Part shown: positions 9,292 to 22,964 of the stretch, piece by piece
How the letters are laid out: every line of letters starts with the position of its first letter
Position numbering within the stretch: the first letter of the stretch is position 1
Assembly (NCBI GenBank): GCA_046715035.1
Contig: JBKJZR010000168.1
Span: forward strand, 1-43,876
Reading direction: 5' to 3'
DNA length: 43,876 nt
Source: Burkholderiales bacterium
Lineage (GTDB): Bacteria > Pseudomonadota > Gammaproteobacteria > Burkholderiales > SG8-41
Made by a program: the position numbers and the translations under genes
Notes under the pieces: model-generated
Databases searched by the model: none
The model's input: only the letters and a program-made list of their open reading frames with translations
Told to the model about the DNA's origin: nothing

Positions 9292-10735
9292 GCGCGCTTT
9301 CGCCACGCGTCGTCCAGCTGCCCCCCAGCGCTTTGAAAAGATCGGCGATCGCGGCGCGTTGGGTACGCAGCGCGTCGATGCGGTTTTGCTCCGCTGCGAG
9401 CAGGTTGCGTTCGGCATCGAGCACGTCGAGTTGGCCCGCCAGCCCATTGTCGTAGCGCAGCTTCGCGAGGCGCAGCGTTTCGCGCAGTGCCGTCACGCGC
9501 TGCGTTTCAGCCGCGAGCCGCGCGCGGGCAGTGACCTGCGCCGCCAATGCGTCGCGAACCTCGCGAAACGCGTTCTGGATCGCACCTTGGTACTGCGCGA
9601 GCGCCTGCCGCTCGCGCGCGGTCGCGCCCTCGACCTGCGAGTCGATGCGCGCCCCGCCGAATAGCGGCTGGGCCAGCGCGATCGCGAGTCCCCAGATCCC
9701 GGCCGGCCCCGTGAACAGGCTGCCCAGCGCAATGCTTTCGCTGCCGAGGTAGCCCGTCAGCGAAATCGCCGGAAAGTACAGCGCCCGCGCAGCGCCGATG
9801 CGCGCATTCGCCGCGACCAGCCGTTGCTCGGCCTCGACGAGATCCGGGCGTCGCAGCAAAAGCTGCGAGGGCATATCCGACGGCACTGCGACCACGGCAG
9901 TCGCGTTCTCAGGATCTGTGCCGGCATCTACCGTGTCTTCGTATATCGCTTTGGGGCTGCGGCCCAGCAGGACGGCAAGTGTGGTCTCCTGCTGCGCGCG
10001 GCCGCGCTCGAGCACGAACAATTGCGCACGCGCGGCGGCGGCTTCCGCCTGGCGCTGGCGAAACTCGAAATCCGACAGCACGCCCAGCTCGACGCGCCGC
10101 TGCTGAATCCTCAGCGATTCGGTATACGATTCGAGCGACCTGCGCGTCGCGCCGAGCTGGTCATCGAACGCGCGCAACGCGAAATACACCTGCGCCACAT
10201 CTGCAACCAGGGTCATACGCACCGTATCGCGCGCCGACTCGGTAGCGAGCAATTCTGCGCGCGCGGCCTGGGTGGCGTTGCGTAACCGTCCCCAGAGATC
10301 GAGCTCGTACGCAACGTCGACGGTTACTCGGTAATTGCTGCTGACCGGCTCACTGCGATTCGTCGAGGATTGCGAGGTGCGGCGCGAAATACGCGATCGT
10401 GAGGCGTCCAGGTTGATAATCCCACTGGGCGTCTCCTCAGACGCTGTTCCTGCCAGAACGGCGCGCGCTTCCTCGACGCGCGCTGCGGCCACAGAGAGAT
10501 TCGCATTCTTGATGAGCGCCTCGTCGATCAACCGCTCGAGCACGGGGTCACCGTAGACCGTCCACCAGCGTGCATCCCTGACCTCGACGCCTCCCGCGGG
10601 CGCTGGAGACCACGTAGCGGGCAGTTCCATCTCGGGCCGTTGATAGGCGGGACCGAGCGAGCAACCGGCGACAACCAGCACCGTTCCCATCGCGGCCACC
10701 AGGGCTCCGCGCACCTTCGAGAGGCGCGCGCTCAT
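9248..10735 (-). CDS. RND efflux outer-membrane lipoprotein (OprM/NodT family)
   Basis: Start ATG 10735 overlaps the permease stop; lipobox VAGC; YELDLWGRLR, LLLRRPDL, LFKALGG. Confidence 0.93.
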   Translation of the reverse strand: MSARLSKVRGALVAAMGTVLVVAGCSLGPAYQRPEMELPATWSPAPAGGVEVRDARWWTVYGDPVLERLIDEALIKNANLSVAAARVEEARAVLAGTASEETPSGIINLDASRSRISRRTSQSSTNRSEPVSSNYRVTVDVAYELDLWGRLRNATQAARAELLATESARDTVRMTLVADVAQVYFALRAFDDQLGATRRSLESYTESLRIQQRRVELGVLSDFEFRQRQAEAAAARAQLFVLERGRAQQETTLAVLLGRSPKAIYEDTVDAGTDPENATAVVAVPSDMPSQLLLRRPDLVEAEQRLVAANARIGAARALYFPAISLTGYLGSESIALGSLFTGPAGIWGLAIALAQPLFGGARIDSQVEGATARERQALAQYQGAIQNAFREVRDALAAQVTARARLAAETQRVTALRETLRLAKLRYDNGLAGQLDVLDAERNLLAAEQNRIDALRTQRAAIADLFKALGGSWTTRGESALSGRSEPAPAPALR

Positions 10736-13700
10736 GTGCCACTCTCCGCGGGCGCCGCCGATGGCAACGCGTCGTGCTGGGGCGAAGGCCGGGGTTTGCG
10801 CGCGAGCAGCGCGAAAAACAGCGGTACGAAAATCGGCGCCACGAAGGTCGCGATCACCATGCCCCCGAAAACCCCCGTGCCCATGGACTGCCGCGCCGCG
10901 GCGCCGGCGCCGGTCGCAAGCACCAGCGGCAACACCCCGAACACGAATGCCAGGGAGGTCATGACGATGGGACGAAAGCGCAGGCGCGCGGCTTCGCGCG
11001 CCGCCACCGCCGCCGGCTTGCCCTGTTCCATGCCCTGCATCGCGAATTCCGCGATCAGGATCGCATTCTTGGCTGCCAGGCCAATCAGCACGATCAGGCC
11101 GATCTGAAAATAAATATCGTTGTTCATGTCGCGCAGGAACACGAACCCGAGCGCTCCCAGCAGCGCGAACGGCACCGCGAGTATCACCGCCAGCGGCACG
11201 CCCCACCGCTCGTACAATGCGGAGAGGATCAGGTAGACCATGATGATCGCGAATCCGAAAGCGAAAATCGACGCGGCTCCGGTACGCTTTTCCTGGAATG
11301 CCTGGCCCGTCCATTCGATGCTGTAGCTCTGCGGCAAGGTCGCCTTGGCGACCTCCTCGACTGCGGCGATCGCCTCGCCGGAACTGAAGCCGGGCTTGGC
11401 ATTGCCCAGCACCTTGGCAGCGATATAGGTGTTGTAGCGCTCGATCTGCTCGGGGCCGATGATGTTGTCGACCTTGATCAGCGCCTTGAGCGGAATCATG
11501 CTGTTGGTGGTCGCCGAGCGCACGTAGACGCTGCCGAGATCTTCGGGCTTGGATCGATACGGCGCATCAGCCTGGATCGTCACCCGATAGGTGCGGCCGG
11601 AGCGGTTGAAGTCGTTCACGTACAGCGAGCCCATTTGCGCCTGCAGCGCGATGAACACCTCGTTGACCGGAACCCCCAGCGCCAATGCTTTTTCGCGATC
11701 GACTTCCACGCGCAGTTGCGGCACGGTCGGGCGAAAGAACGTGTTGATACCGGTGAGCGCAGGATGCTTGTTGAGCGCAGCGACGAATTCACCGGTTACC
11801 TGGGCGAGCTTCTGCGGATCCGCTTCGGTGCGCCCCTGGACGTATACTTCGAACCCGCCTGCGGCGCCCAGACCCTGGATGGCCGGCGGATTGAACGCGA
11901 ACGCGATGCCGTCCGCCAGCATGAAGCCCTTGCCGCTCACCTCGTTCGCGAGTGCGACCGAAGTCTGCTTGCGCTGGTCCCACGGCTTCATCGGCGCGAA
12001 GATCGTCGCCGCGTTGCCTTTGTTGCCGCCGCCGATCAAATCGAAGCCGTTGACGATGAAAAAGTTCTCGATCGCCTGGTTGTCGGCCATCATCTGGCGC
12101 AACTGCTCGGTCGTTCTGCTGGTGCGCTCGAGGGTGGCGCCATCGGGCAACTGGACTGCGGCGATGATGTAGCCCTGGTCTTCAGGAGGCACGAAGCTGC
12201 CCGGGATGCGCCAGAACAGCACGCCGACGACAGCGAGCAGCGCCGCAAAGGCGATTCCCGCCAGCACACGGCGCGCCAAAGCGAGGTCGACCGCACCGAT
12301 GAAACGCCGCGTAGTCCATTCGAAGCCCCGGTTGAACCACCGGAAGGGGCGCTCCAGCCAGCCGCCCGTGTGATCGCCCTGCTTGAGCAGAATCGCGCAC
12401 AGCGCAGGCGTGAGCGTCAGTGCGGTTACTCCGGACAGGACGACCGCGATGGCGACCGTGACCGCGAACTGGCGGTAAAGCTGCCCGGCGATGCCGCCGA
12501 GGAACGCGACCGGTATGAACACCGCGCACAATGCCAGCACGATGCCGATCACCGCGCCCTGCACTTCGCGCATCGCCTCGATCGCCGCATCGAAGGGCTG
12601 CATCTTTTCCTCGCGCATCAGGCGCTCGACGTTCTCGAGCACCACGATCGCGTCGTCCACCACGATACCGATCGCCAGCACCATCGCGAACAGCGTCAGC
12701 GTGTTGATCGAGAAGCCGAACAGCCAGAGACCGGCGAAAGTGCCGATCAGCGAGACCGGCACGGCCAGCATCGGAATCAGCGTGGCGCGCCAGGTCTGCA
12801 GGAAAACGAAGACGACGAGCACGACGATCAAGGCCGCCTCGACGATCGTGTGCACGACCTCCTTGATCGAGGCGGAAACGAAGCGCGTCGTATCGTAGGG
12901 AATGCTGTAATCCACGTCGCCTGGAAAGCGCTCACGCTTCAGCTCCGCCATCTTGGCCTTGACCGCGTGGGCTACGTCGAGCGCGTTGGCGCCGGACTGG
13001 AGAAACACACCGAGCGGCATGGCGGGCTGGCCATTGATCGTGCTCGACGCGTCGTAGTTTTGCGCGCCCAGTTCGATGCGTGCGACGTCCTTGAGCTTGA
13101 GCACGCCCGAGCTGCCGCTGCCCACGCTGCCCACGTTGCCCACGTTGCCCGAACGCAGCACGATGTCGCCGAACTGCTCGGCTTCTACGAGCCGGCCACG
13201 CGCCGTAACCGTGTAGACGAGCGACTGGCCCCTGGGCGCGGGCTCGGCGCCGATCTTGCCCGCCGCATACTGCGCGTTCTGAGCGGCTATCGCGGCCTGG
13301 ATGTCTGCGGTCGTCACGCCGAGCTGCGCCATGCGGTCGGGCTTCAGCCACACGCGCATCGAATAATCGCGTGCCGCAAAATTCACGACGTCGGCAACGC
13401 CCGGGATGCGCTTGATGTCGTCGATGACGTTCAGCGTCGCGTAGTTGGACAGGAACAGTGTGTCGCGCGTGCTTTTCGGCGAGTTGAGCGAGATGACCAG
13501 CAGGAAATTCTGCGAGCGTTTCGCCACCGTGACGCCGTTGCGCCGCACTTCGTCCGGCAGGCGCGGCGTAGCCAGCTGCACGCGATTGTTGATGTTGAAA
13601 GTGGCCTTGTCGACGTCGGTGCCGATTTCGAAAGTGGCGGTGATCGTGATCAGGCCGTTCGAGGCCGAACTGGAGCTGAAGTAGAGCAGGTTTTCGACGC

Positions 13701-13911
13701 CCGAAAGCTGTTCCTCGATCGGCGCGGCCACGGTCTTGGCGAGCGTTTCGGCGGACGCCCCGGGATAGCTGGCCGTGATCGTCACGGTCGGCGGCGCGAT
13801 CTCGGGATACTGCGCAATGGGCAGAATCTTCGCGGAAACCAGGCCCGCGAGCACGATGATGATCGCAATGACGCACGCGAAAATGGGACGTTCGATGAAG
13901 AATCGGGACAT
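10732..13911 (-). CDS. RND efflux permease (AcrB/MexB/HAE1 family)
   Basis: MSRFFIERPIFA start, AIGIVVDDAIVVLENVER, GLAAKNAILI, RFRPIVMTS. Confidence 0.97.
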   Translation of the reverse strand: MSRFFIERPIFACVIAIIIVLAGLVSAKILPIAQYPEIAPPTVTITASYPGASAETLAKTVAAPIEEQLSGVENLLYFSSSSASNGLITITATFEIGTDVDKATFNINNRVQLATPRLPDEVRRNGVTVAKRSQNFLLVISLNSPKSTRDTLFLSNYATLNVIDDIKRIPGVADVVNFAARDYSMRVWLKPDRMAQLGVTTADIQAAIAAQNAQYAAGKIGAEPAPRGQSLVYTVTARGRLVEAEQFGDIVLRSGNVGNVGSVGSGSSGVLKLKDVARIELGAQNYDASSTINGQPAMPLGVFLQSGANALDVAHAVKAKMAELKRERFPGDVDYSIPYDTTRFVSASIKEVVHTIVEAALIVVLVVFVFLQTWRATLIPMLAVPVSLIGTFAGLWLFGFSINTLTLFAMVLAIGIVVDDAIVVLENVERLMREEKMQPFDAAIEAMREVQGAVIGIVLALCAVFIPVAFLGGIAGQLYRQFAVTVAIAVVLSGVTALTLTPALCAILLKQGDHTGGWLERPFRWFNRGFEWTTRRFIGAVDLALARRVLAGIAFAALLAVVGVLFWRIPGSFVPPEDQGYIIAAVQLPDGATLERTSRTTEQLRQMMADNQAIENFFIVNGFDLIGGGNKGNAATIFAPMKPWDQRKQTSVALANEVSGKGFMLADGIAFAFNPPAIQGLGAAGGFEVYVQGRTEADPQKLAQVTGEFVAALNKHPALTGINTFFRPTVPQLRVEVDREKALALGVPVNEVFIALQAQMGSLYVNDFNRSGRTYRVTIQADAPYRSKPEDLGSVYVRSATTNSMIPLKALIKVDNIIGPEQIERYNTYIAAKVLGNAKPGFSSGEAIAAVEEVAKATLPQSYSIEWTGQAFQEKRTGAASIFAFGFAIIMVYLILSALYERWGVPLAVILAVPFALLGALGFVFLRDMNNDIYFQIGLIVLIGLAAKNAILIAEFAMQGMEQGKPAAVAAREAARLRFRPIVMTSLAFVFGVLPLVLATGAGAAARQSMGTGVFGGMVIATFVAPIFVPLFFALLARKPRPSPQHDALPSAAPAESGT
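13117..13150 (-). repeat. In-frame 9-bp tandem repeat inside the RND permease gene
   Basis: GCTGCCCAC GCTGCCCAC GTTGCCCAC GTTGCCC, encoding GNVGNVGSVGS. Confidence 0.8.
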
Positions 13912-13922
13912 GGCGGGGCGCT

Positions 13923-15146
13923 TTAGCCGGCTTTTTTCGGGGGCGCCGCTGCGGGTTTGCCCGCGGGTGCGGGAGCGCCCGGTGCAGGCCCACCCGGCGC
14001 AGCCCCCGGCTGGTGCGGCTGCACCGCGGCGCCCGGACGTATCTTCAGCAGGTTGTCGACGATGACCGGGTCGCCCTCGACCAGTCCCTTGCGCACAATC
14101 CAGTTGTTGTCGGACCACGCTGTCGCCTCGACCGGGCGCATCGCGGCCTTGCCGTCGGGTCCCGCAAGCCACACGAAGCGGCCCTGTTCGCCCTGCATCA
14201 CGGCCGCATGTGGCACGAGAAACGCTTCCTCCTCGCCGGTGAGCGCCTGGACCCGCACGAACTGCCCCGGCAGCAGCCCGAAGCCCGGATTGGCAAACTC
14301 GGCGCGCAACTGCACGGTCCCGAGCCTAGGATCGACCGTCGATGCGGCGAAGTTCACCCGCCCGGTCGACGCAAACATTTTTCCATCGGGCAGCACGAGC
14401 CTGATCTGCGCTTTCTTCGCGGCACTGCGCAATTGCGCGTACTCGAATTCGGAGAAGGAAAAGCGCACCCAGATCGGGTCGATCTGGGCAACGGTCGTCA
14501 GCAGCGCGCTGTCGGTGCCGGCCGTCACCAGACTGCCCTCGGAACGCTGGGCGCGCCCCGTCACACCGCCGATGGGCGCGGTGACCGCGACATAGGACAG
14601 GTTGAGCTCGGCCTCGCGCACCTTGGCCTGGGCTGCCATCAACGCGGCTTCGGATTGCTTGAGCGTCGAAGCAGAGTCGTCGTATTCCTTCTGACTGACT
14701 GCGCGCTCCGCCGCGAGCTGCTTCATGCGCCCCGCTTCGCGCTGCGCCTGCTCGATACGCGCGTTTTCCTGCGCCAGCGAGGCCTTGACCTGATCCAGGG
14801 CTATCTCATAGGGCGCGCGATCGATGACGAACAGCACCGCGCCGGCGCGCACCGATTCGCCCTCCTGATAGAGCCGCTTTTGCACGATCCCGGAAACCCG
14901 CGCGCGCACCTCGACTTCGCGCGATCCTTCCGTCTGGCCGACCGCCTCGGTCAATGCGGGCACCCGCTGCGGCTTGGCGTGCAACACCGTGACGGGTAAC
15001 GCCATCATGCCTGGTGCGGGCCCCTTGGCCGGATTCTGGGTGCCGTCTCCGCACGCAGCGAGAAAAAACGCGGCAACGAAACCCGCCGCCAGTGCGAACG
15101 GAACAGCGGAAAAGCGGACGTGGGGCGAGCGCAAGTCGGGAACCAT
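13923..15146 (-). CDS. RND efflux periplasmic adaptor (AcrA/MexA family)
   Basis: Lipobox LAAC; EVRARVSGIV, VTAPIGGVTG, GLLPGQFVRV. Confidence 0.95.
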   Translation of the reverse strand: MVPDLRSPHVRFSAVPFALAAGFVAAFFLAACGDGTQNPAKGPAPGMMALPVTVLHAKPQRVPALTEAVGQTEGSREVEVRARVSGIVQKRLYQEGESVRAGAVLFVIDRAPYEIALDQVKASLAQENARIEQAQREAGRMKQLAAERAVSQKEYDDSASTLKQSEAALMAAQAKVREAELNLSYVAVTAPIGGVTGRAQRSEGSLVTAGTDSALLTTVAQIDPIWVRFSFSEFEYAQLRSAAKKAQIRLVLPDGKMFASTGRVNFAASTVDPRLGTVQLRAEFANPGFGLLPGQFVRVQALTGEEEAFLVPHAAVMQGEQGRFVWLAGPDGKAAMRPVEATAWSDNNWIVRKGLVEGDPVIVDNLLKIRPGAAVQPHQPGAAPGGPAPGAPAPAGKPAAAPPKKAG

Positions 15147-15276
15147 GTCAGGAGTTGTCCGTATTGGTCATTTATTGGGATCGCGGGATCGCGGGGCGTC
15201 GTACGCGGCAAACGAAGCACTGTGAGCGCTGCGCGCGGAACGGTGTGGACGAAGCGCGCTTAATCGGTTACGATTA

Positions 15277-15300
15277 TACATACATCCTTGAATGTATGTA
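15277..15300. promoter_or_regulatory. AcrR-type TetR operator palindrome
   Basis: TACATACATCCTTGAATGTATGTA, a 24-bp dyad between the divergent adaptor and tetR genes. Confidence 0.85.
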
Positions 15301-15331
15301 AAGAGGTTTGCCAAACTGATCGAAGGGACGA

Positions 15332-15994
15332 ATGGCCCGCCGCACCAAAGCAGCAGCGCAGGAAACCCGCACCCGCATCCTCGACACGGCCGAGCAGGTC
15401 TTTCTCGACAAGGGTGTCTCGCACACATCGCTCGATCACATCGCCGCAGCGGCGGGCGTGACACGCGGGGCGATCTACTGGCACTTCAAGAATAAAGCCG
15501 ATCTGTTCGGCGCCATGACGCAGCGCGTGGCGCTGCCGATGGAGGAGATCGCAGCGCGCGCCGCGGACCCTGACGCGCGCGACCCGCTCGAATCGGTGCG
15601 TGCCTGCGCGCTCAGCGTGCTCAAGCGCCTGACTTCCGATGCGCAGTGCCAGCGCGTGTTCGAGATCTGCTGCCACAAGGTCGAGTACGTGGACGACATG
15701 AGGCGGGTGCGCGCGCGTCATATCGAATGTCGCAACGCGTGCCTCAAGTACATCGAGCGCGGACTGCGCAACGCGGCAAAAAAGAAATTGCTCGCGCCGT
15801 CAGTGAACCCGCGTTTGGCAGCAATCGCTTTGCACGCGCTCGTCGACGGCCTGATCGTCAACTGGGTGCTCGACCCCAAGTATCTGAACCTCGCCTCGGC
15901 TGCCGAGCCGCTGATCGACAGCTACATCGACGGGCTGCGAACGGCGGCACGCTCCCGCCCACGCCAGTCCGGCCGCCAGCCAGCCCAAGGCTGA
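15332..15994 (+). CDS. TetR family repressor (AcrR/TtgR-like)
   Basis: MARRTKAAAQETRTRILDTA...AGVTRGAIYWHFKNKADLF; divergent from the RND operon. Confidence 0.95.
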   Translation: MARRTKAAAQETRTRILDTAEQVFLDKGVSHTSLDHIAAAAGVTRGAIYWHFKNKADLFGAMTQRVALPMEEIAARAADPDARDPLESVRACALSVLKRLTSDAQCQRVFEICCHKVEYVDDMRRVRARHIECRNACLKYIERGLRNAAKKKLLAPSVNPRLAAIALHALVDGLIVNWVLDPKYLNLASAAEPLIDSYIDGLRTAARSRPRQSGRQPAQG

Positions 15995-16212
15995 GCACGC
16001 CGCCGCGCCGTCTTAAGGGGCCGGAGCCACCGCGCGATAGTGGCCAACTGCATCAGCGCCCCTGTCCCAGCCCTGCCCGGTCAGCAAGCGTGACGCATTG
16101 CACAGCGATGTTTAATTGAATCTGGATTTGTCCTCCTTATTTGCTTAAACTGGCTGCTCGGTAATTCCACCCCTGCGCGAGCTCCCGCCTTGGAGCACAG
16201 GCTCTGCTCGAT

Positions 16213-16902
16213 ATGAAAACCGGAAGACCAGCCCTCGTTCTTGCCGCTGCACTGTTGTCGGTGACGACCGTTTGCGCGCAGGGTTTCAGTTTCTCCAGGG
16301 AGGAAGAGGCCAGAAAGGCGAAGGAGCAGGAACGCCAGCAGGCGCGCGACGAGGTGATCGCCGACCGGCTGTCGACGCCCTGCCGCGCGCAGCTCAAAGA
16401 CAAGAAGATCATGGTGATCATCGGCGAGCAGCAGTCAGGCGGCATGATTTCGGCGAATCAGCAGAACTACGGTCCGCATTTTCAGGCGATCAATCAGCGG
16501 CTGCGCGGGCTGGGCCTGAGGACGTATACGCCGGAAGAGATCCGCAGACAGATCGCGCAGGCCGAGATCGACGCCTATTTCAAGGGCAATCCCGACGCCG
16601 CGCTTTCCGCCTCGCGGCGACTCGGCGCGAGCTTTATACTGCGTGGCCTCATCACCACGCAGGCGGCGGTCAACCGCATCATCAACGTCAATGAAGTTAC
16701 CGTCGGCATGGGCTTCACGCTCGTGGACACCAGCGGCCGCATGATTTCCGACGCCTCCGCTCAGGACGGCTCGTACTCGGGCAGCGACACCCGCGCAATG
16801 GCGTCGAAATTGATCAACGAGCATGCCGACGAAGTCGTCACCAAGCTTTACAGCGACTACTGCACCAAAGCAGTGACCGCCGAGCCCAGGCGAAAAAAGT
16901 AA
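16213..16902 (+). CDS. Secreted hypothetical protein, TolB-N/CsgG/FlgT-middle-like alpha/beta fold
   Basis: Sec signal (..VTTVCA|Q); pattern KKIMVIIGE, RLGASFILRG, FTLVDTSGRMI; two Cys in the mature region. Confidence 0.7.
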   Translation: MKTGRPALVLAAALLSVTTVCAQGFSFSREEEARKAKEQERQQARDEVIADRLSTPCRAQLKDKKIMVIIGEQQSGGMISANQQNYGPHFQAINQRLRGLGLRTYTPEEIRRQIAQAEIDAYFKGNPDAALSASRRLGASFILRGLITTQAAVNRIINVNEVTVGMGFTLVDTSGRMISDASAQDGSYSGSDTRAMASKLINEHADEVVTKLYSDYCTKAVTAEPRRKK

Positions 16903-16956
16903 TCTCGCTCAGCACACGTTCGCACCGCGAGCGGCTGTCCATTAAGGAGAATCCAC

Positions 16957-17772
16957 ATGAATAATCAGTTTGCGAAGGCCACGATGATCGCTGCGACCGG
17001 CGCCCTGCTGGCATGGTCCGGCGCGACCTGCGCGCAGCCGCGCTGGGGCTCCGACAGCAGCCCCTCGCCGTCCACCTCGACTTCGCAGAAGACCAATGAA
17101 GCCGCCGATCGCGCAGTCTACAAGCCGGTCGAATACACGAACGCCAGCAAGCGTGGCCCCGCGTTGATCGTGATACCCGGTGAGATCAAAAGCAACAACG
17201 CGACGTTCACGCAGAAGTTCGGCTCCAACAACATCGCCGACTTCGCCGAGATCGAGCTCTCCAACGCGAATTTTCAGGTGCTCGAACGCACCAACCTCGG
17301 ACCACTGCTTAACGAGTTCACGCTCGCGTACAACCTGGGAGACCCTGATCAGGCCCGCAAGATGCTCGGGCGCGGCAAGCTGAAAACCACCAAGTGGGTC
17401 GTCAAGTTCGACGTCCTCAAGACCGAGCAGGTGGCCGCCGCGCAGCAGGGATTCGATGGCCGCGCGTTGGGAAATATCGTGGGCATACTCGGCGGCTCGC
17501 GCGGCGCGGCGGCCGGCGGCACTGCGGTCGGCTCGGTGCGCAATCAGGACACGAGCGGCGTATGGATCATCGGCATGCGCTACAAGATCATGAACGCGGA
17601 AACCACCGAGCAGGTAGCCCAAGGCTACACCGAGGAAAAGATGGAGGTAGGCACGACTTCCACTTCCGTGCTGGGCATCTCGTCGGCGCAGCAGGGCGGC
17701 GTTTCGCTCGACACCATGGTGCAGCGCCTGATCCAGAAGACGGTCTGGGAAATCGACAACCGCTACAAATAA
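16957..17772 (+). CDS. CsgG/HfaB-like secreted protein
   Basis: AGGAG RBS, signal peptide, ANFQVLERTNLGPLLNE, glycine-zipper-like segment, MRYKIMNAETTEQV. Confidence 0.75.
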   Translation: MNNQFAKATMIAATGALLAWSGATCAQPRWGSDSSPSPSTSTSQKTNEAADRAVYKPVEYTNASKRGPALIVIPGEIKSNNATFTQKFGSNNIADFAEIELSNANFQVLERTNLGPLLNEFTLAYNLGDPDQARKMLGRGKLKTTKWVVKFDVLKTEQVAAAQQGFDGRALGNIVGILGGSRGAAAGGTAVGSVRNQDTSGVWIIGMRYKIMNAETTEQVAQGYTEEKMEVGTTSTSVLGISSAQQGGVSLDTMVQRLIQKTVWEIDNRYK

Positions 17773-17802
17773 GGCCGGCCACGCCGGCCGACGGGAGCGT
17801 TC

Positions 17803-20187
17803 ATGAGCGAACAGATACCCGCCAAGCTCGGTAAATACGAAATCCTGCGCGAGCTGGGCCGTGGCGCGATGGGTGTCGTCTATGAGGCCTTCGATCCGGC
17901 GATCGAGCGCACTGTCGCGCTGAAGACGATCCGCCGCGATCAGCTCGACGGCGCCGAGGCCGAAGAGCTGCTCGTGCGCTTCCAGCGCGAAGCCAAAGCC
18001 GCAGGCCGTCTCAATCATCCGAATATCGTTTCGATCTACGATTTCGGCGACGACCACGGCGTTTCGTTCATCGCCATGGAGTTCGTGCGCGGGCGCGAGC
18101 TCAAGAGCTATTTCGAGAAGAGCGAGCGTTTCCCGCTGCCGGAGATCGTGCGCATCATGGCCCAGCTGCTCGATGCCCTCGATTACTCTCACAACTACGG
18201 CGTCGTGCACCGCGACGTGAAGCCGGCGAACATCATCATTCTCGCGAACGGCCAGATCAAAGTCGCCGACTTCGGCATCGCCCGCATCGAATCGTCGCAG
18301 TACACGCAGGCCGGCACGGTGCTGGGCACCCCCGCCTACATGTCGCCGGAACAGTTCATGGGTCAAACCGTGGACCGGCGCACGGATGTTTTCTCTGCCG
18401 GTGTCGTCCTCTACCAGTTTCTGACAGGAGAACGTCCCTTCTCGGGCGCAGCGACGACGATCATGCACAAGGTATTGAGCGTCGATCCACCGCCGCCATC
18501 GCTGCTGAACGTGCAGGCACCGAGGCCTTTCGATGCGGTCATCGGCAAGGCGATGGCCAAGCGGCCCGAAGACCGGTTTCAGTCCGCGCGCGAATTTGCC
18601 GAGGCGATCAAGCTCGCCGCGGAGGGGAAGTCCGCTCCCGGCCTCGCCGTCCCGCCCGCGGCGGGGTCCGACCAGACGGTGCTCAATACCGATGCGGGGG
18701 CAACGGCCAAGGTGGCCGCAATCGTGCCTTCGGTACCGCCGGCTGCGCCGCTGCCAGCTGCGCCGGCAGCGCCGGTCGCCCAGCGCAAATCGCCGGTGCT
18801 GGCGGTGACTGCGGTGGCGGCAGTCGTCATCGGCGTCGGCATCGCGAGCTATTTCGTCATGCCCCGCACGCCGGAGGTCGCTCCCGCCGCCGCGACGTCC
18901 GCGCCACCCTCTGCTCTGTTGGCAGCGGCGCCGGCGCCAGTTGTAGCGCAGGCCGCCCCCGCTTCACCAGTGGCAGTGGCAGCGGTCAACAGCGAACCCG
19001 GAACGATGATCATCAGCGCGGTCGGGCTCGCGGACCCGCACGACCAGAAGTACCAAACCGACAAATCGCTGCTTGCAGCCGACGTGCGGGCCGATTCCAA
19101 GAGCCAGCTCGTCGAGAAAGCGATCGCGCTCTATCTCGACCGGGCATCGCTTGCCAAGAACTACGATGTGCTGCGCGACCGTCTGCTTTCCAAGAGCGGC
19201 AACTATATCGCCAGCATCGTGCAGGAAGGCGAGCCGCGCCTCGGCAAGGACGGGCTCATGTACGTGACGACACAGGCGGCAGTCAAAGTGCGTGAAGTGC
19301 AGAAATCGCTCAATCAAATGTCGCGCGATGAGCGCATCGAGTTTATCCGCAACAATGGCGATCCCAGAATTTCGGTAGGCATCAACGTGCGCGGGGAGCG
19401 CGGCGACGCGCCCGCGCAAAATTCGCAGGTCGCCGAGAACCTCCTGAAAGAGCGTATCAAGTCGTTCGGATTCCGCACCTGGTCGGACGACGCAAAGGCG
19501 CCGCCGTCATCGCCCGCCGATTTTTCAGTGGTTGGCGAAGCGCGGCTGAAAAAACTTTCGGCGCGGCTCGAGGCTTCCGGCATCACGATCGACAAGTACC
19601 TGTTGACTTCATGGACCGTCAAATGCATCGACAGGCAGACGGGCGAAGAGATCTACTACAACAACAAGCTGCCGGTGGGCGCGGGGTCGTGGGCCACCGA
19701 GGAACAGGCGCTGGCTGCGATCGGCGGCAAGATTGCCGACGAATTCTCGCGTGATTTTTTCGTACGTCATTTCAACGCCAGCGGTCGCCGCGTTACCCTC
19801 AAGGTCGATGGCCTGCCAGACAGGAGCACCGAAGACGCGATCGTGCGCGAGTTGATTGGGCTGCAGCCTGTCATCGCTGCCGCTCGGCGGGCGGGCGCGG
19901 CAGCGATTTATGATTTGCAGTTGTCCGGGGGAACGGGGCCGGTGACCGACCTCGTCGCCGCGACCATCCTCAAGCCGCTCAACGCCAAAATCGGTCAGAC
20001 CTGCTTCAATCTGGGGGCGACGAGCGGTGACCAGATCAATGTGGCTTTCGATCCGGCATGCAGCGATAAGGCCGTGCTCGCGCGGCTCGATACCAATCCG
20101 CCTGCATCGCTGTATGCGGCACCTCCCGCGCGGCAGAAAGCCGTGCTCAAGGATCCCGCTGCGATCAAGAAGCTGACGACGATCTAA
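17803..20187 (+). CDS. Membrane-anchored Hanks-type Ser/Thr kinase with large periplasmic C-terminal region
   Basis: LGRGAMGVVY, VALK, HRDVKPAN, DFG, GTPAYMSPE, DVFSAG; Ala/Pro linkers; TM VLAVTAVAAVVIGVGIASYFVM; ~400-aa C-terminal region. Confidence 0.95.
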   Translation: MSEQIPAKLGKYEILRELGRGAMGVVYEAFDPAIERTVALKTIRRDQLDGAEAEELLVRFQREAKAAGRLNHPNIVSIYDFGDDHGVSFIAMEFVRGRELKSYFEKSERFPLPEIVRIMAQLLDALDYSHNYGVVHRDVKPANIIILANGQIKVADFGIARIESSQYTQAGTVLGTPAYMSPEQFMGQTVDRRTDVFSAGVVLYQFLTGERPFSGAATTIMHKVLSVDPPPPSLLNVQAPRPFDAVIGKAMAKRPEDRFQSAREFAEAIKLAAEGKSAPGLAVPPAAGSDQTVLNTDAGATAKVAAIVPSVPPAAPLPAAPAAPVAQRKSPVLAVTAVAAVVIGVGIASYFVMPRTPEVAPAAATSAPPSALLAAAPAPVVAQAAPASPVAVAAVNSEPGTMIISAVGLADPHDQKYQTDKSLLAADVRADSKSQLVEKAIALYLDRASLAKNYDVLRDRLLSKSGNYIASIVQEGEPRLGKDGLMYVTTQAAVKVREVQKSLNQMSRDERIEFIRNNGDPRISVGINVRGERGDAPAQNSQVAENLLKERIKSFGFRTWSDDAKAPPSSPADFSVVGEARLKKLSARLEASGITIDKYLLTSWTVKCIDRQTGEEIYYNNKLPVGAGSWATEEQALAAIGGKIADEFSRDFFVRHFNASGRRVTLKVDGLPDRSTEDAIVRELIGLQPVIAAARRAGAAAIYDLQLSGGTGPVTDLVAATILKPLNAKIGQTCFNLGATSGDQINVAFDPACSDKAVLARLDTNPPASLYAAPPARQKAVLKDPAAIKKLTTI

Positions 20188-20331
20188 AGCTAAAGCGCGG
20201 GCGGCGCGCCCGGTCCTGGCAGCGTTTCATAGGCGCACCAAAGCGGGGCGGCTTGGCAGTGGTTGTTCCTGCCTTAGGACAACGTGGACACCCTGATTGT
20301 TTCCGGCGCCGGGAGCGCCCTGGGTTGCGCG

Positions 20332-21222
20332 TCAGTTCGAGACGAAGGTGACGATCTCCGCATCTGCCGCGCCCGACGTGTGGCCTAGGCTGATCACGCC
20401 GCGGCCGCGCAGCATGAACTGCTCTCGCTTGAGCAGCATCTCCGGGTCGCCGCCGACTTTCACGTACGTGCCGTTGGTGCTTTGATCGACGAGCAGAAAC
20501 TTGCCGCGCCGATACTCGATCTTGCAATGCACGCGCGACGCCATCTTGTCCGCAACGACCAGATCATTGCCCGCGTCGCGGCCGAGGGATGCCGACGGCT
20601 GGTCGGCGCCGAGCTCGAGTGTGATTCCCCCGTACGACAACGCGAGCGTCGCTTCATGGGCTGCAGGCGCTTCGTTGCGGATCGCCATCGTGGTGAGATC
20701 ATCGCTATCCTGCCAAAGCACCTCGAAAACGCGGATCTGGTCCTGCTTGCCTTTCACCGACATCGCGTCCAGGTCGCGGGTGGCAGAGCGCAGCAACGGC
20801 GACATGGCCTCGACCGTCGCCTCGGTGGTGATGATTTGTCCACCCTTGGCAAGACCCGCCATGCGCGCCGCGGTGTTGACGGCGTCGCCGAAAAAGTCGC
20901 CGCCCTCTTCGATTGCCGGGCCGAAATGAAAGCCCGCACGGATCGCCAGGCGCGCGCTCTCGATGGGCGGAATGGCTGCGACCCGGTTCTGCATGTCGCA
21001 AGCCGCCTGCATTGCGGCGTCCGCGGTTGGCAGCACGGCCATGATCTCGTCGCCGATGGTTTTTATCACACGGCCGCGCTGCACCGCGACCGACTTGCGC
21101 AGCTCGGCGAGCACCGAGTCGATCGCCGCGAGCGCGCGCTGATCGCCGAGCTTTTCGTACAGCGTCGTGCTGCCGCTGACGTCGGCGAAGAGAATGGCGC
21201 ATTGCGGGGCGGCGGAGGTCAC
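20332..21222 (-). CDS. Class III adenylate cyclase with C-terminal FHA domain
   Basis: FADVSGST, KTIGDEIM, DFFGDAVNTAARM; FHA LGR...SRVH...STNGT. Start GTG 21222 or TTG 21231 uncertain. Confidence 0.92.
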   Translation of the reverse strand: MTSAAPQCAILFADVSGSTTLYEKLGDQRALAAIDSVLAELRKSVAVQRGRVIKTIGDEIMAVLPTADAAMQAACDMQNRVAAIPPIESARLAIRAGFHFGPAIEEGGDFFGDAVNTAARMAGLAKGGQIITTEATVEAMSPLLRSATRDLDAMSVKGKQDQIRVFEVLWQDSDDLTTMAIRNEAPAAHEATLALSYGGITLELGADQPSASLGRDAGNDLVVADKMASRVHCKIEYRRGKFLLVDQSTNGTYVKVGGDPEMLLKREQFMLRGRGVISLGHTSGAADAEIVTFVSN

Positions 21223-21266
21223 TGCGCGCAATTATAGCTCGGTGCCCCCTTGGACCGGCGAAGCGT

Positions 21267-21446
21267 CTCCTTAGGCAAAACCGCCTCGAAAAAAATGCGC
21301 AAGTATTGTCAAAAAAGCCATCGAAATGTCGTTGCTGCGTACTCACCGAGGTGAAACGGCTGTGGAATCAGACATTCTTCAGAAAAAATGGGGCGGTTTT
21401 CCTTTAGCAGCCTGTCGGACCCTCTAAGTCCGACAGGCTGCTAGGC
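21267..21446. repeat. Composite MITE-like repeat, copy 1
   Basis: About 92% identical (hand count: 14 substitutions, 1 indel) to 24793-24973; TIR-bounded unit plus hairpin TAGCAGCCTGTCGGAC-N7-GTCCGACAGGCTGCTA (21405-21443). Confidence 0.9.
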
Positions 21447-22964
21447 AGGCTGTGCGATTCTTTTCTTCTTCGCCTGCGCGGCGCGCGCGTGGAGCGAGGC
21501 GTATGCGCCATGGGCGGCTGCTTCGGCGTCGCCGACGTGGATGGGCAGGCCCATGTCGGCGAGCACCGACCCGAGTGCGGACAGGCACAGCATGACGTTT
21601 TCCGGCTTGCACGAGTATCCCATCAGGCCGATGCGCCAGATCTTGCCGGCCAGCGGTCCCAGGCCGGCGCCGATCTCGAGATTGAACTCGGTGAGCAGTG
21701 TCTTGCGCACATCGGCTTCGCGCTCGCGCACCGCTTCGGGCACATGTATCGCGTTCATCTGTGGCAGCCCGGCGCCCTCGCGCACCAGAAACTTGAGGCC
21801 CATCGCCTCCAGGCCGGCCTTCAGCGCGAGGTGGTGGCGCATGTGCCGCGCCCACGAGTTCTCGATGCCTTCTTCTTTGAGGATCACCAGCGCCTCGTGC
21901 AACGCGTAAAGGCTGTTGGTCGGCGCGGTGTGGTGATACGTGCGCGTCGTCGCGCCCCAGTAGCCCAGCAGCAGATTCATGTCCATGAACCAGCTGTGGA
22001 TCTTGTCCTTGCGGGCCTTGACCTGATCGACCACGCGCTCGGTGAACGACACCGGCGAGAGCCCCGGCGTGCACGACAGGCACTTCTGGCTCGCCGAGTA
22101 GACCGCGTCGAATTTCCATTCGTCTGTCAGCACGGGTGTGCCCGCGAGCGAGGTGACGGCGTCGACGATGGTCAGCGCCTCGTGCCGGTGCGCGATCTCG
22201 ACCAGGGTCTTCGCGTCGGACTGCACGCCCGTGGACGTTTCGGCGTGGACGAATGCGACTAACCTGGCGTCGCGGTTGTTGGCGAGCGCGTCCTCGAGCT
22301 TCTGTGGATCGACGGGCTCGCCCCAGGCGTCCTCGACGACGATCGGCACGCCGCCGCAGCGCTCGACGTTTTCGATCATGCGGCCGCCGAATACGCCGTT
22401 GCGGCAGACGATGACCTTGTCGCCCGGGGTGACCAGATTCACGAAGCAGTATTCCATGCCCACCGATCCCGGCCCCGAGATCGGAAAAGTCAGCGGATTG
22501 CGGGTCTGGTAGACATAGCGCAGCAAACCCTTGAGCTCTTCCATCATCTCGACGAAGACCGGATCGAGATAGCCGATGGCGGGCAGGCTCATCGCCGCCA
22601 TTACCCGTGGGTTTATCTCCGACGGCCCTGGCCCGAGCAGGGTGCGCTGCGGCGGATGGAAGGACGTGACGCGTTTTGCTGGCGCAAACTCATTCATGGT
22701 TTCAATTCCTGTGGTGGACGACCCGAACAGGCTCTCGCCGTCGGGCCGGGATTTCATTCGCAGCGGCTTGCGGGCGGTAGCCTCGGTCAGCACGTCTGCC
22801 GCGGCGACCTGGCCGCGCGTGGCGTTCTCGATCTCCATCGCCCAGCGCGCGGGCACGTAGCCGGCCTTGACCCAGTTGTTGACGACGGCGCGGTCGAGCC
22901 GCAGTTGACGCGCGACTTCGGCCTGGGTGCCGAAATAGGCGACGAGCCGTTCAACGCAATTCAT
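21441..22964 (-). CDS. Class V PLP aminotransferase (alanine-glyoxylate/serine-pyruvate type) with N-terminal Cro/YdaS-like HTH
   Basis: LLGPGPS, HAETSTG, VDAVTS, SASQKCL (PLP Lys), WRIGLMG; N-terminal FGTQAEVARQLRLDRAVVNNW; alternative internal start ATG 22697. Confidence 0.9.
   Translation of the reverse strand: MNCVERLVAYFGTQAEVARQLRLDRAVVNNWVKAGYVPARWAMEIENATRGQVAAADVLTEATARKPLRMKSRPDGESLFGSSTTGIETMNEFAPAKRVTSFHPPQRTLLGPGPSEINPRVMAAMSLPAIGYLDPVFVEMMEELKGLLRYVYQTRNPLTFPISGPGSVGMEYCFVNLVTPGDKVIVCRNGVFGGRMIENVERCGGVPIVVEDAWGEPVDPQKLEDALANNRDARLVAFVHAETSTGVQSDAKTLVEIAHRHEALTIVDAVTSLAGTPVLTDEWKFDAVYSASQKCLSCTPGLSPVSFTERVVDQVKARKDKIHSWFMDMNLLLGYWGATTRTYHHTAPTNSLYALHEALVILKEEGIENSWARHMRHHLALKAGLEAMGLKFLVREGAGLPQMNAIHVPEAVREREADVRKTLLTEFNLEIGAGLGPLAGKIWRIGLMGYSCKPENVMLCLSALGSVLADMGLPIHVGDAEAAAHGAYASLHARAAQAKKKRIAQPA

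Follow-up and report, generated by a model that had tools for sequence, protein, structure and literature searches.

What do two small exported proteins, a membrane-spanning protein kinase and a nucleotide cyclase do together when their genes stand side by side? The question is raised by a locus of a Burkholderiales bacterium of the GTDB group SG8-41, on contig JBKJZR010000168.1 of GenBank assembly GCA_046715035.1. The stretch of DNA analysed, which we call the window, comprises 43,876 nucleotides (nt; positions 1 to 43,876 of the forward strand, contig C168 in our numbering) of a genome of 324 contigs, 4.0 Mb and about 90% completeness. The list of open reading frames (ORFs) places gene A, for an exported protein of 229 amino acids (aa), at 16213-16902 on the plus strand, gene B, for an exported protein of 271 aa, at 16957-17772 (+), and the gene of a receptor Hanks-type Ser/Thr kinase of 794 aa, also recognized by the Pfam Pkinase model, at 17803-20187 (+). 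A and B are separated by 54 nt, and B and the kinase gene by 30 nt. On the minus strand, at 20332-21231, the ORF list and Pfam identify a class III adenylate cyclase with a C-terminal FHA domain (hereafter cyclase-FHA; 299 aa from a TTG start). Its gene is convergent with that of the kinase, the two stops lying 144 nt apart, and has an alternative GTG start at 21222, three codons inside the TTG at 21231.

The four genes, their positions, the two short gaps and the convergent cyclase-FHA gene had been described in an earlier note on this DNA, and the ORF list bears them out. The arrangement is not due to chance, as it recurs in dozens of genomes. We propose that the locus encodes a periplasm-facing Hanks-kinase module in which A, B and the exported domain of the kinase (the ectodomain) act as the sensor and the cyclase-FHA protein as the output, making cyclic AMP (cAMP); to this reading we give an even chance of being correct.

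Conservation of the unit and of its cyclase neighbour

Genes A and B and the kinase gene form a tight, conserved unit, to which the cyclase-FHA gene is more loosely linked; the four genes are not an obligate unit. We scanned relatives with B, taking one genome per species (315 relatives, 80 loci kept) and counting over the loci with enough sequence on the relevant side. A was upstream of B in 72 of 74 loci (63 of these at 40% identity or more), a kinase domain was downstream of B in 60 of 71, and a convergent cyclase-FHA gene lay no more than 1.6 kb from the kinase end in 30 of 48. These locus counts rest on tblastn; a GC3-based gene caller lost B in 12 of 87 loci. The order A, B, kinase, reversed cyclase-FHA is kept in all seven longer loci, four of which are the same contigs as loci from the B-based scan. 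At three of the seven (L017-L019), ectodomain identity is about 47-50% and the outer flanks differ, and the cyclase-FHA gene is still adjacent.

Co-occurrence of the ectodomain type and the cyclase-FHA protein was counted in 300 evenly drawn genomes of the order, each at least 90% complete. Cyclase-FHA was found at E<=1e-30 in all 11 genomes with the ectodomain type versus 59 of the 289 others, and the two genes are adjacent by coordinates in seven of the 11; these 11 genomes come from five families and are mutually related, and the comparison is not an independent-sample statistic. Within the genus, 12 of 24 other genomes carry the ectodomain type, as does one of 16 genomes from other families of the order.

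The module occurs mainly in Burkholderiales from soil and sediment, and its cultured carriers include Azospira sp. I13 and Ramlibacter sp. WS9. Five contigs with the module (L025, L042, L061, L079 and L033) are labelled uncultured Streptomyces, Streptomycetaceae, Actinomycetota, Micrarchaeota and a Bordetella parapertussis metagenome-assembled genome; these labels are probably binning or labelling errors.

The exported parts and their fold

The kinase domain (residues 12-258; 17836-18576, +) matches Pfam Pkinase PF00069 at E 6.4e-53 (180.3 bits, cut-off 31.7 bits). The VALK, HRDVKPAN (HRD) and DFG motifs are present and conserved in 53 full-length orthologues, as are S164/S165, T168 and T176 of the activation loop. 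A single putative transmembrane (TM) helix, read from a hydrophobic stretch of the sequence (residues ~332-353; 18796-18861, +), is bordered by poorly conserved Ala/Pro-rich linkers and leaves an exported part of ~410-440 residues. A Hanks kinase with one TM helix and a C-terminal region of about 400 aa is what the earlier note had described.

The AlphaFold2 (AF2) model of the ectodomain is confident (mean pLDDT 83.8, pTM 0.72) and comprises three units and a helical tail. DSSP of the model gives the first unit, D1 (residues ~402-509; 19006-19329, +), the order beta-alpha-alpha-beta-beta-alpha. D2 (residues ~522-656; 19366-19770, +) is modelled as beta-alpha-beta-beta-beta-beta-alpha and holds the VKCIDRQTGEEIY hairpin, and D3 (residues ~662-749), which with the C-terminal helical tail spans 19786-20184 (+), as beta-alpha-beta-beta-alpha-beta-beta with a conserved Cys pair, C351/C370 (P0001 numbering). 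Searched against the PDB with Foldseek, the model matched HpaA (E 1.2e-5), PelC (1.8e-4) and the DUF330 protein XCC0632 (6e-4), each at a probability of at least 0.99, and the pre-pore and membrane forms of CsgG (E 6e-5 to 4.6e-4, probability likewise at least 0.99); for HpaA, CsgG and PelC the probability reaches 1.00. As modelled, the ectodomain belongs to the CsgG/PelC/LpoB-type fold class. From the order of secondary-structure elements we infer that the CsgG/PelC/HpaA-like match falls on D2, Foldseek having given no aligned ranges. D3 has weak Foldseek matches to ACT-bearing PurU (E 1e-3, probability 0.35-0.54). A comparison of the ectodomain with an LPP20-domain protein of another locus (L125, below) by hhalign gave E 0.0041 at a probability of 8%, a weak lead that D1 is possibly LPP20-like.

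B carries a signal peptide of the signal peptidase I type (residues ~1-26, read from the sequence), with A-x-A before Q and without a lipobox. Among the 54 B N-termini listed, 43, including that of the window, have A-x-A before Q-P, and 11 are lipobox-like, mostly where B is present as a second copy or the locus is a variant one. The window protein has no Pfam match at E<=1 and does not reach the gathering score of the CsgG family (PF03783); sub-threshold CsgG matches occur in 20 of 47 orthologues (best E 2.6e-4), and eight of the 120 B homologues listed bear the JGI label 'CsgG'. The AF2 model of B is poor (pLDDT 55.5), with low confidence in the Gly-rich segments 160-201 and 232-248. On this poor model the best Foldseek match is CsgG 4uv2 (E 1.9e-7, probability 1.00, TM score 0.40-0.49), followed by HpaA, FlgT 3w1e (E 2.6e-6), GNA1162, PelC and LpoB. 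These matches suggest that B is a distant member of the CsgG superfamily. Searches of the genome returned no CsgG-family match at E<=0.1, and none of the window neighbours is CsgE, CsgF or CsgA, no search having been aimed at these three families. Residues ~27-56 of B (17035-17124) are strongly conserved across orthologues (consensus NPSPTAGS-TSQKANE-AD-A) and are modelled at pLDDT <50; this segment may be a docking peptide.

The N-terminus of A (residues ~1-22, read from the sequence) is signal-peptide-like and, as in B, consists of a basic n-region and a hydrophobic core that lead up to A-x-A before Q. Its mature N-terminus is conserved as Q-GF(K/S)FS in an alignment of 45 rows, in which C57 and C217 are invariant. 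The cleavage site is of the A-x-A type and has no conserved Cys, unlike that of the lipid-anchored LpoB family. The A-x-A motif is kept in the orthologues, in line with the two signal-peptide proteins of the earlier note; A and B both lack a lipobox in the window, so that the term trans-envelope, which the note had also used, has no basis here. Window A falls below the Pfam cut-offs for LpoB (E 0.12; 12.7 versus 22.3 bits) and DUF2066 (E 0.035). Sub-threshold matches among the 45 orthologues are to LpoB in 27 (best E 2.4e-5), DUF2066 in seven, LptE in four and FlgT_M in one. In the ESM Atlas, the named clusters closest to A are LpoB/CsgG/GNA1162 (scores 0.92-0.93), and the best relevant PDB match of the A profile is PelC 5t10 at a non-significant E of 0.12. 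A is probably an LpoB/PelC-like alpha/beta domain. A search for longer proteins that contain A gave four matches that look like gene-call fusions and are uninformative.

The earlier note had read one CsgG-like fold into all three exported parts. The idea holds for the ectodomain on a confident model, is indicated for B on a poor one and is likely for A, whereas comparisons of the three with hhalign were non-significant (below). Nor did sequence searches of A, B and the ectodomain against the PDB, single or by profile, give anything significant. A shared fold is thus supported structurally for two parts, with weak sequence evidence for A and no direct sequence homology. The invariant Cys residues of A and the conserved Cys pair of the ectodomain fit a periplasmic location. 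When residues 23-229 of A and 27-271 of B were modelled as a complex with the ectodomain (15-411) as partner, the prediction scored 0.02 against a mark of 0.32, in a run without controls from which we draw no conclusion.

The cyclase-FHA protein, variant loci and genomic setting

The cyclase domain (residues 9-166; 20734-21207, -) matches Pfam Guanylate_cyc PF00211 (E 1.3e-17, 64.4 versus 21.9 bits), and the FHA core (residues 215-258; 20458-20589, -) matches PF00498 (E 7.2e-12, 46 versus 20.7 bits). Among 31 homologues, cyclase residues D17, K57, D61, D112, N119 and R123 are kept either without exception or in at least 90%. Judged by their spacing relative to Rv1625c, they presumably include the two metal-binding Asp, the Lys/Asp pair for adenine and the transition-state Asn and Arg. 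Across 31 sequences, the FHA domain shows no change at G217, R218, S232, R233, H235 and G254, and N253 is kept in at least 90%. The catalytic (D, K, D, N, R) and phosphothreonine-binding (GR, SxxH, NG) residues are therefore intact, as the earlier note had read them. The linker between the two domains is variable, except for T180 in a D-L-T motif, which is at least 90% conserved; the residue at +3 from T180 is mostly Ala or Ser. Against the TagH model TIGR03354 the protein scores 36.2 bits (cut-off 120.25).

The cyclase-FHA family is common in the order and often multicopy or tandem. Tandem pairs lie at G030:C2:255803-257553, G539:C203:80667-82425, G493:C62:22635-24493 and G456:C1:8860-10675, and some Burkholderiales relatives have up to six copies per genome. 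We sampled 40 cyclase-FHA loci from 33 genomes. A Hanks kinase lay within 7 kb at 12 of them, three being the module itself and nine involving other kinases. Over the 37 loci that lack the module, another Hanks kinase is found within 7 kb in nine and within 3.5 kb in seven; chance would give roughly one in 37, a rough figure based on seven kinases in the 4.0-Mb genome studied here. Pfam annotation of two such loci shows a kinase with sCache_3_2 and HAMP domains divergent from a cyclase-FHA paralogue (L110) and, in a Ramlibacter (L111), an operon in which cyclase-FHA is joined by genes for a TagH-like FHA protein and a kinase of 709 aa. This repeated pairing with unrelated kinases is what we rate the best evidence that cyclase-FHA proteins are kinase clients. 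A FastTree phylogeny of the family with a midpoint root, which gives only a coarse picture, puts the module-adjacent copies in a few neighbouring clades with module-less copies interspersed.

Variant loci show A, B and the ectodomain in other combinations. At eight loci that lack the kinase (L055, L056, L061, L063, L077, L079, L089 and L093), the place of A is taken by a protein with an A-like domain at its C-terminus (for example L061:5475-6986), followed by B. This protein has ~500 aa, except in L093, where it has 1022 aa. The A-like domain retains the GFxFS motif and both Cys. All three replacement proteins scanned, those of L056, L061 and L093, have a caspase (Peptidase_C14) domain at E 4e-32 to 4e-42, and the L061 protein has a signal-peptide-like N-terminus. 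L061 and L063 also have a convergent cyclase-FHA gene, the cyclase of which has lost K57, D61 and R123. Some loci carry a second, lipoprotein copy of B. At L084:7787-9655 a 622-aa protein with CHASE2 and class III cyclase domains is encoded directly 3' of a B homologue, with no kinase or FHA domain.

Across the class, the ectodomain profile matches four of 399 other genomes, two of them strongly and in other orders. These two (L124 and L125) encode the ectodomain between A and B as a stand-alone exported protein with a signal peptide (466 and 484 aa), which shows that A, B and the ectodomain belong together, fused or not. Both loci form a six-gene cluster (L124:5325-10302 and L125:7225-12715) of a TPR lipoprotein, an unknown protein, an LPP20-domain protein (27.5-28.3 bits, cut-off 25.9), A, the ectodomain homologue and B. 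In L125, B is a lipoprotein with PG_binding_1 (5e-17) and is followed by a Porin_5 protein; encoded divergently there is a 529-aa kinase, 57% identical in its catalytic domain, with a single TM helix and an outer tail of low complexity. An exhaustive search with the ectodomain profile gave 1148 representatives at E<=1e-3, of which 151 reach E<=1e-30; among them are kinase-fused proteins of ~750-860 aa, free proteins of ~440-480 aa and many fragments. The genome studied here, at about 90% completeness, has no LPP20-family match and one B alone, and so the larger envelope cluster is not there.

The module is flanked upstream by an RND efflux pair and a TetR regulator, and downstream by a class-V aminotransferase, the PP-loop enzyme TtcA, an SDR protein and a methyltransferase. 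The upstream group, just 5' of A at 10732-15994, consists of an AcrB-type RND pump, an HlyD-type adaptor and a divergent TetR/MAATS-type regulator; its neighbourhood to the module is not kept in distant loci. The flank annotation shows no curli, flagellar or type VI secretion system (T6SS) genes among the window neighbours, as the earlier note had also found, and a role in any of these systems was dropped on that ground. A scan of 15900-21500 gave 0 promoter-like sites, and nine terminator-like sites versus 5.1 +/- 2.1 in shuffled sequences, none of them usefully positioned. On another contig of the same genome, at G000:C229:13166-18101, an FHA-domain ORF is followed by three Hanks kinase genes.

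Proposed signalling scheme, alternatives and known relatives

In the scheme we propose, the kinase ectodomain would work with soluble periplasmic A (LpoB-like) and B (CsgG-like), produced from the same operon-like unit. Oligomerization and autophosphorylation of the kinase would respond to changes in the envelope or in how A and B assemble. Using its FHA domain, the cyclase-FHA protein would recognize a phosphothreonine of the kinase or, once Thr180 is phosphorylated, of its own linker, and its single cyclase domain would pair up to make cAMP. The contact between A, B and the ectodomain, the nature of the signal, the target of the FHA domain and the cAMP product are predictions of the scheme. 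A bolder version, which we consider unlikely, would have A, B and the ectodomain form a mixed CsgG/PelC-type periplasmic ring that the kinase helices anchor in the inner membrane. Its assembly state, which would depend on how intact the peptidoglycan or outer membrane is, would be the signal. The module would then be a new class of receptor kinase and part of the first phosphothreonine-gated adenylate cyclase pathway, and in sister loci the A/B platform would be reused to hold a periplasmic caspase.

Several observations weigh against the proposed scheme. The earlier note had made conserved co-occurrence of the four genes a check of its idea; A, B and the kinase do hold tightly together and cyclase-FHA is linked to them, but 18 of 48 loci have no adjacent cyclase-FHA gene. 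Its place is taken there by genes for a creatininase, a patatin, a GGDEF-EAL protein, a solute-binding protein or an oxygenase. Of five genomes without the adjacent gene, three have a full-length copy elsewhere and the other two gave cyclase-domain matches alone with this query; in Azospira the cyclase-FHA gene adjoins TtcA on the same contig, ~70 kb from the module. The counted genomes are related, so the counts overstate independence. The genome has seven Hanks kinases and three FHA proteins, and it is therefore by position that this kinase is paired with the cyclase-FHA protein. No conserved Thr is found in the juxtamembrane linker of the kinase across the 53 orthologues. As regards the fold, hhalign comparisons among the alignments of B (47 rows, A1), the ectodomain (44 rows, A2) and gene A (45 rows, A3) gave non-significant E values of 0.039, 0.018 and 0.31, the short pieces aligned coinciding with the equivalent first strand and helix. 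The fold match of B was obtained on a model of pLDDT 55.5, and the fold of A is read from its sequence. Finally, at L131 and L153 a cyclase-FHA gene (50-52% identity) adjoins the aminotransferase gene, and at L131 also TtcA, with no module alongside, and the whole genome that holds L131 (G039) has no ectodomain match. The adjacency of cyclase-FHA and module could thus partly be inherited synteny.

This last point bears on two alternatives. One, a lesser but real possibility, is that A, B and the ectodomain serve primarily in an envelope structure or a transport apparatus and not in ligand sensing. In Burkholderiales one component would have become fused to a kinase that monitors its assembly or controls it; the cyclase-FHA gene would be a neighbour by old synteny, and its product at most one of several kinase clients. 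The free ectodomain of the L124/L125 clusters, with their TPR lipoprotein and LPP20-domain protein and the Porin_5 protein of L125, is in keeping with this, as are the B lipoprotein with PG_binding_1 in L125, the lipobox-type start of 11 of the 54 B N-termini listed and the fold relatives (CsgG, PelC, FlgT, HpaA and the XCC0632/DUF330 protein), which are mostly structural envelope proteins. However, the larger cluster is missing from the genome studied here (no LPP20 match and a single B at about 90% completeness), the fusion to an intact kinase in dozens of genomes points to signalling as the selected role in this lineage, and cyclase-FHA accompanies the module in 11 of 11 genomes. The other alternative, which we regard as quite improbable, denies any functional tie between cyclase-FHA and kinase and sees in their convergent position a conserved chromosomal neighbourhood. 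Convergent genes are not co-transcribed, cyclase-FHA occurs in 59 of 289 genomes that lack the module, 28 of the 40 sampled loci have no kinase within 7 kb, and the aminotransferase and TtcA genes recur as neighbours. Against this stand the same 11 of 11 genomes, an adjacency that survives the change of flanks at L017-L019, the pairing of paralogues with unrelated kinases about nine times above the rough chance estimate, and the FHA domain itself, which requires a Ser/Thr kinase.

Two further alternatives accept signalling and place it differently. The cyclase-FHA protein could be regulated mainly through its own linker, with Thr180 phosphorylated by this or another kinase and bound by the FHA domain in cis or in trans, switching cyclase dimerization without docking on the kinase, in the manner of the FHA switches GarA and OdhI. 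Conservation of T180 in an otherwise variable linker speaks for this, as does the kinase juxtamembrane region with no conserved Thr. The Ala or Ser at +3 is not known to be a typical FHA preference, and the conserved activation-loop Thr residues of the kinase are possible docking sites; we hold the linker mechanism to be doubtful. A precedent is DgcB of Bdellovibrio, the FHA domain of which binds a phosphopeptide from DgcB itself (PMC6733907). Very unlikely, in our view, is that A and B are a periplasmic docking platform for different effectors in a stress, death or conflict system. The eight kinase-less loci with an A-like replacement, the caspase in all three scanned and the CHASE2-cyclase after B in L084 fit such a platform, whereas the module flanks are housekeeping genes and its surroundings showed no genes for toxins, immunity proteins or mobile elements, the PADLOC defence library not having been searched.

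The sensor module is conserved and, in the searched literature, undescribed, and the proposed signalling scheme is a variant of the Hanks-kinase/FHA theme. Its closest worked analogues are the TagR-PpkA-Fha1 pathway of the type VI secretion system and the FHA-gated cyclase DgcB. In the T6SS pathway that embodies this theme, a membrane Hanks kinase and exported accessory proteins act with an FHA phospho-reader that switches on the output, and the periplasmic domain of its kinase PpkA is a vWA domain. The locus resembles that pathway in its membrane kinase with a periplasmic domain, its exported helpers and its FHA reader. Unlike it, the window has no T6SS genes, an FHA protein far below the TagH cut-off, a cyclase output and a CsgG/PelC-like kinase ectodomain in place of that of PpkA; in contrast to the pathway, too, no PP2C_2 phosphatase was found in the genome at its ~90% completeness. 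The pathway is named as the threonine phosphorylation pathway of the T6SS (TagQRST-PpkA-Fha1-PppA, Pseudomonas aeruginosa) in PMC5995506.

With DgcB, a nucleotide cyclase gated by an FHA domain that reads a phosphopeptide (PMC6733907), the protein studied here shares the combination of FHA domain and nucleotide cyclase and, by prediction, the gating. Unlike DgcB, which has an N-terminal FHA domain, a GGDEF domain that makes c-di-GMP and a ligand in its own tail, it has the class III cyclase first and the FHA domain last, cAMP as its predicted product and a receptor kinase alongside. The Myxococcus Pkn2 kinase-cyclase fusion (PMC1262709) likewise unites a Hanks kinase with a class III cyclase domain, and a scan with NCBIfam gave a partial match to the TOMM kinase/cyclase family TIGR03903. 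In both of these the two activities sit on one polypeptide, whereas here they are separate proteins, presumably coupled through phosphothreonine and the FHA domain.

The exported parts have their own likenesses. The ectodomain shares the fold class of the curli channel CsgG, as B may too, and B is of similar length; unlike CsgG, window B fails the Pfam CsgG model and has no lipobox. LpoB is an outer-membrane lipoprotein that activates the penicillin-binding protein (PBP) PBP1B. A resembles it as a small alpha/beta protein of the same probable fold, placed to act on the periplasmic part of an inner-membrane enzyme; in contrast to LpoB, it is below the Pfam cut-off, has neither a lipid anchor nor a long disordered linker, and its putative partner is a kinase and not a PBP. 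The envelope ring proteins PelC, FlgT/FlgP and HpaA share the fold class; no flagellar or Pel genes lie near the module. The L124/L125 cluster, with its CsgG-like, LpoB-like and LPP20-domain proteins and TPR lipoprotein, recalls FlgT/FlgP/FlgO sets in make-up.

To our knowledge, the input has been identified for few of the Hanks kinases of bacteria, mainly for those with PASTA domains and for the PpkA/TagR pair. We found no description of the composition reported here in the searched literature, which did not extend to subscription journals and supplements. The main text of a kinase atlas preprint (10.1101/2025.01.12.632604) has none of the terms CsgG, LpoB, cyclase and periplasmic; its table S3, on domain architectures, might list the family.

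The module is a conserved, putative three-protein extracytoplasmic sensor, and its fold has so far been associated with a PBP activator, with secretion channels and with the rings of flagella and of polysaccharide export. Together with the cyclase-FHA protein, it may link Ser/Thr phosphorylation directly to cAMP by way of an FHA domain, a connection of which the searched literature likewise gave no description. The free ectodomain in the six-gene envelope cluster hints at how a structural part of the envelope entered signalling. As Azospira and Ramlibacter carriers are in culture, these predictions are open to ordinary genetics and biochemistry.

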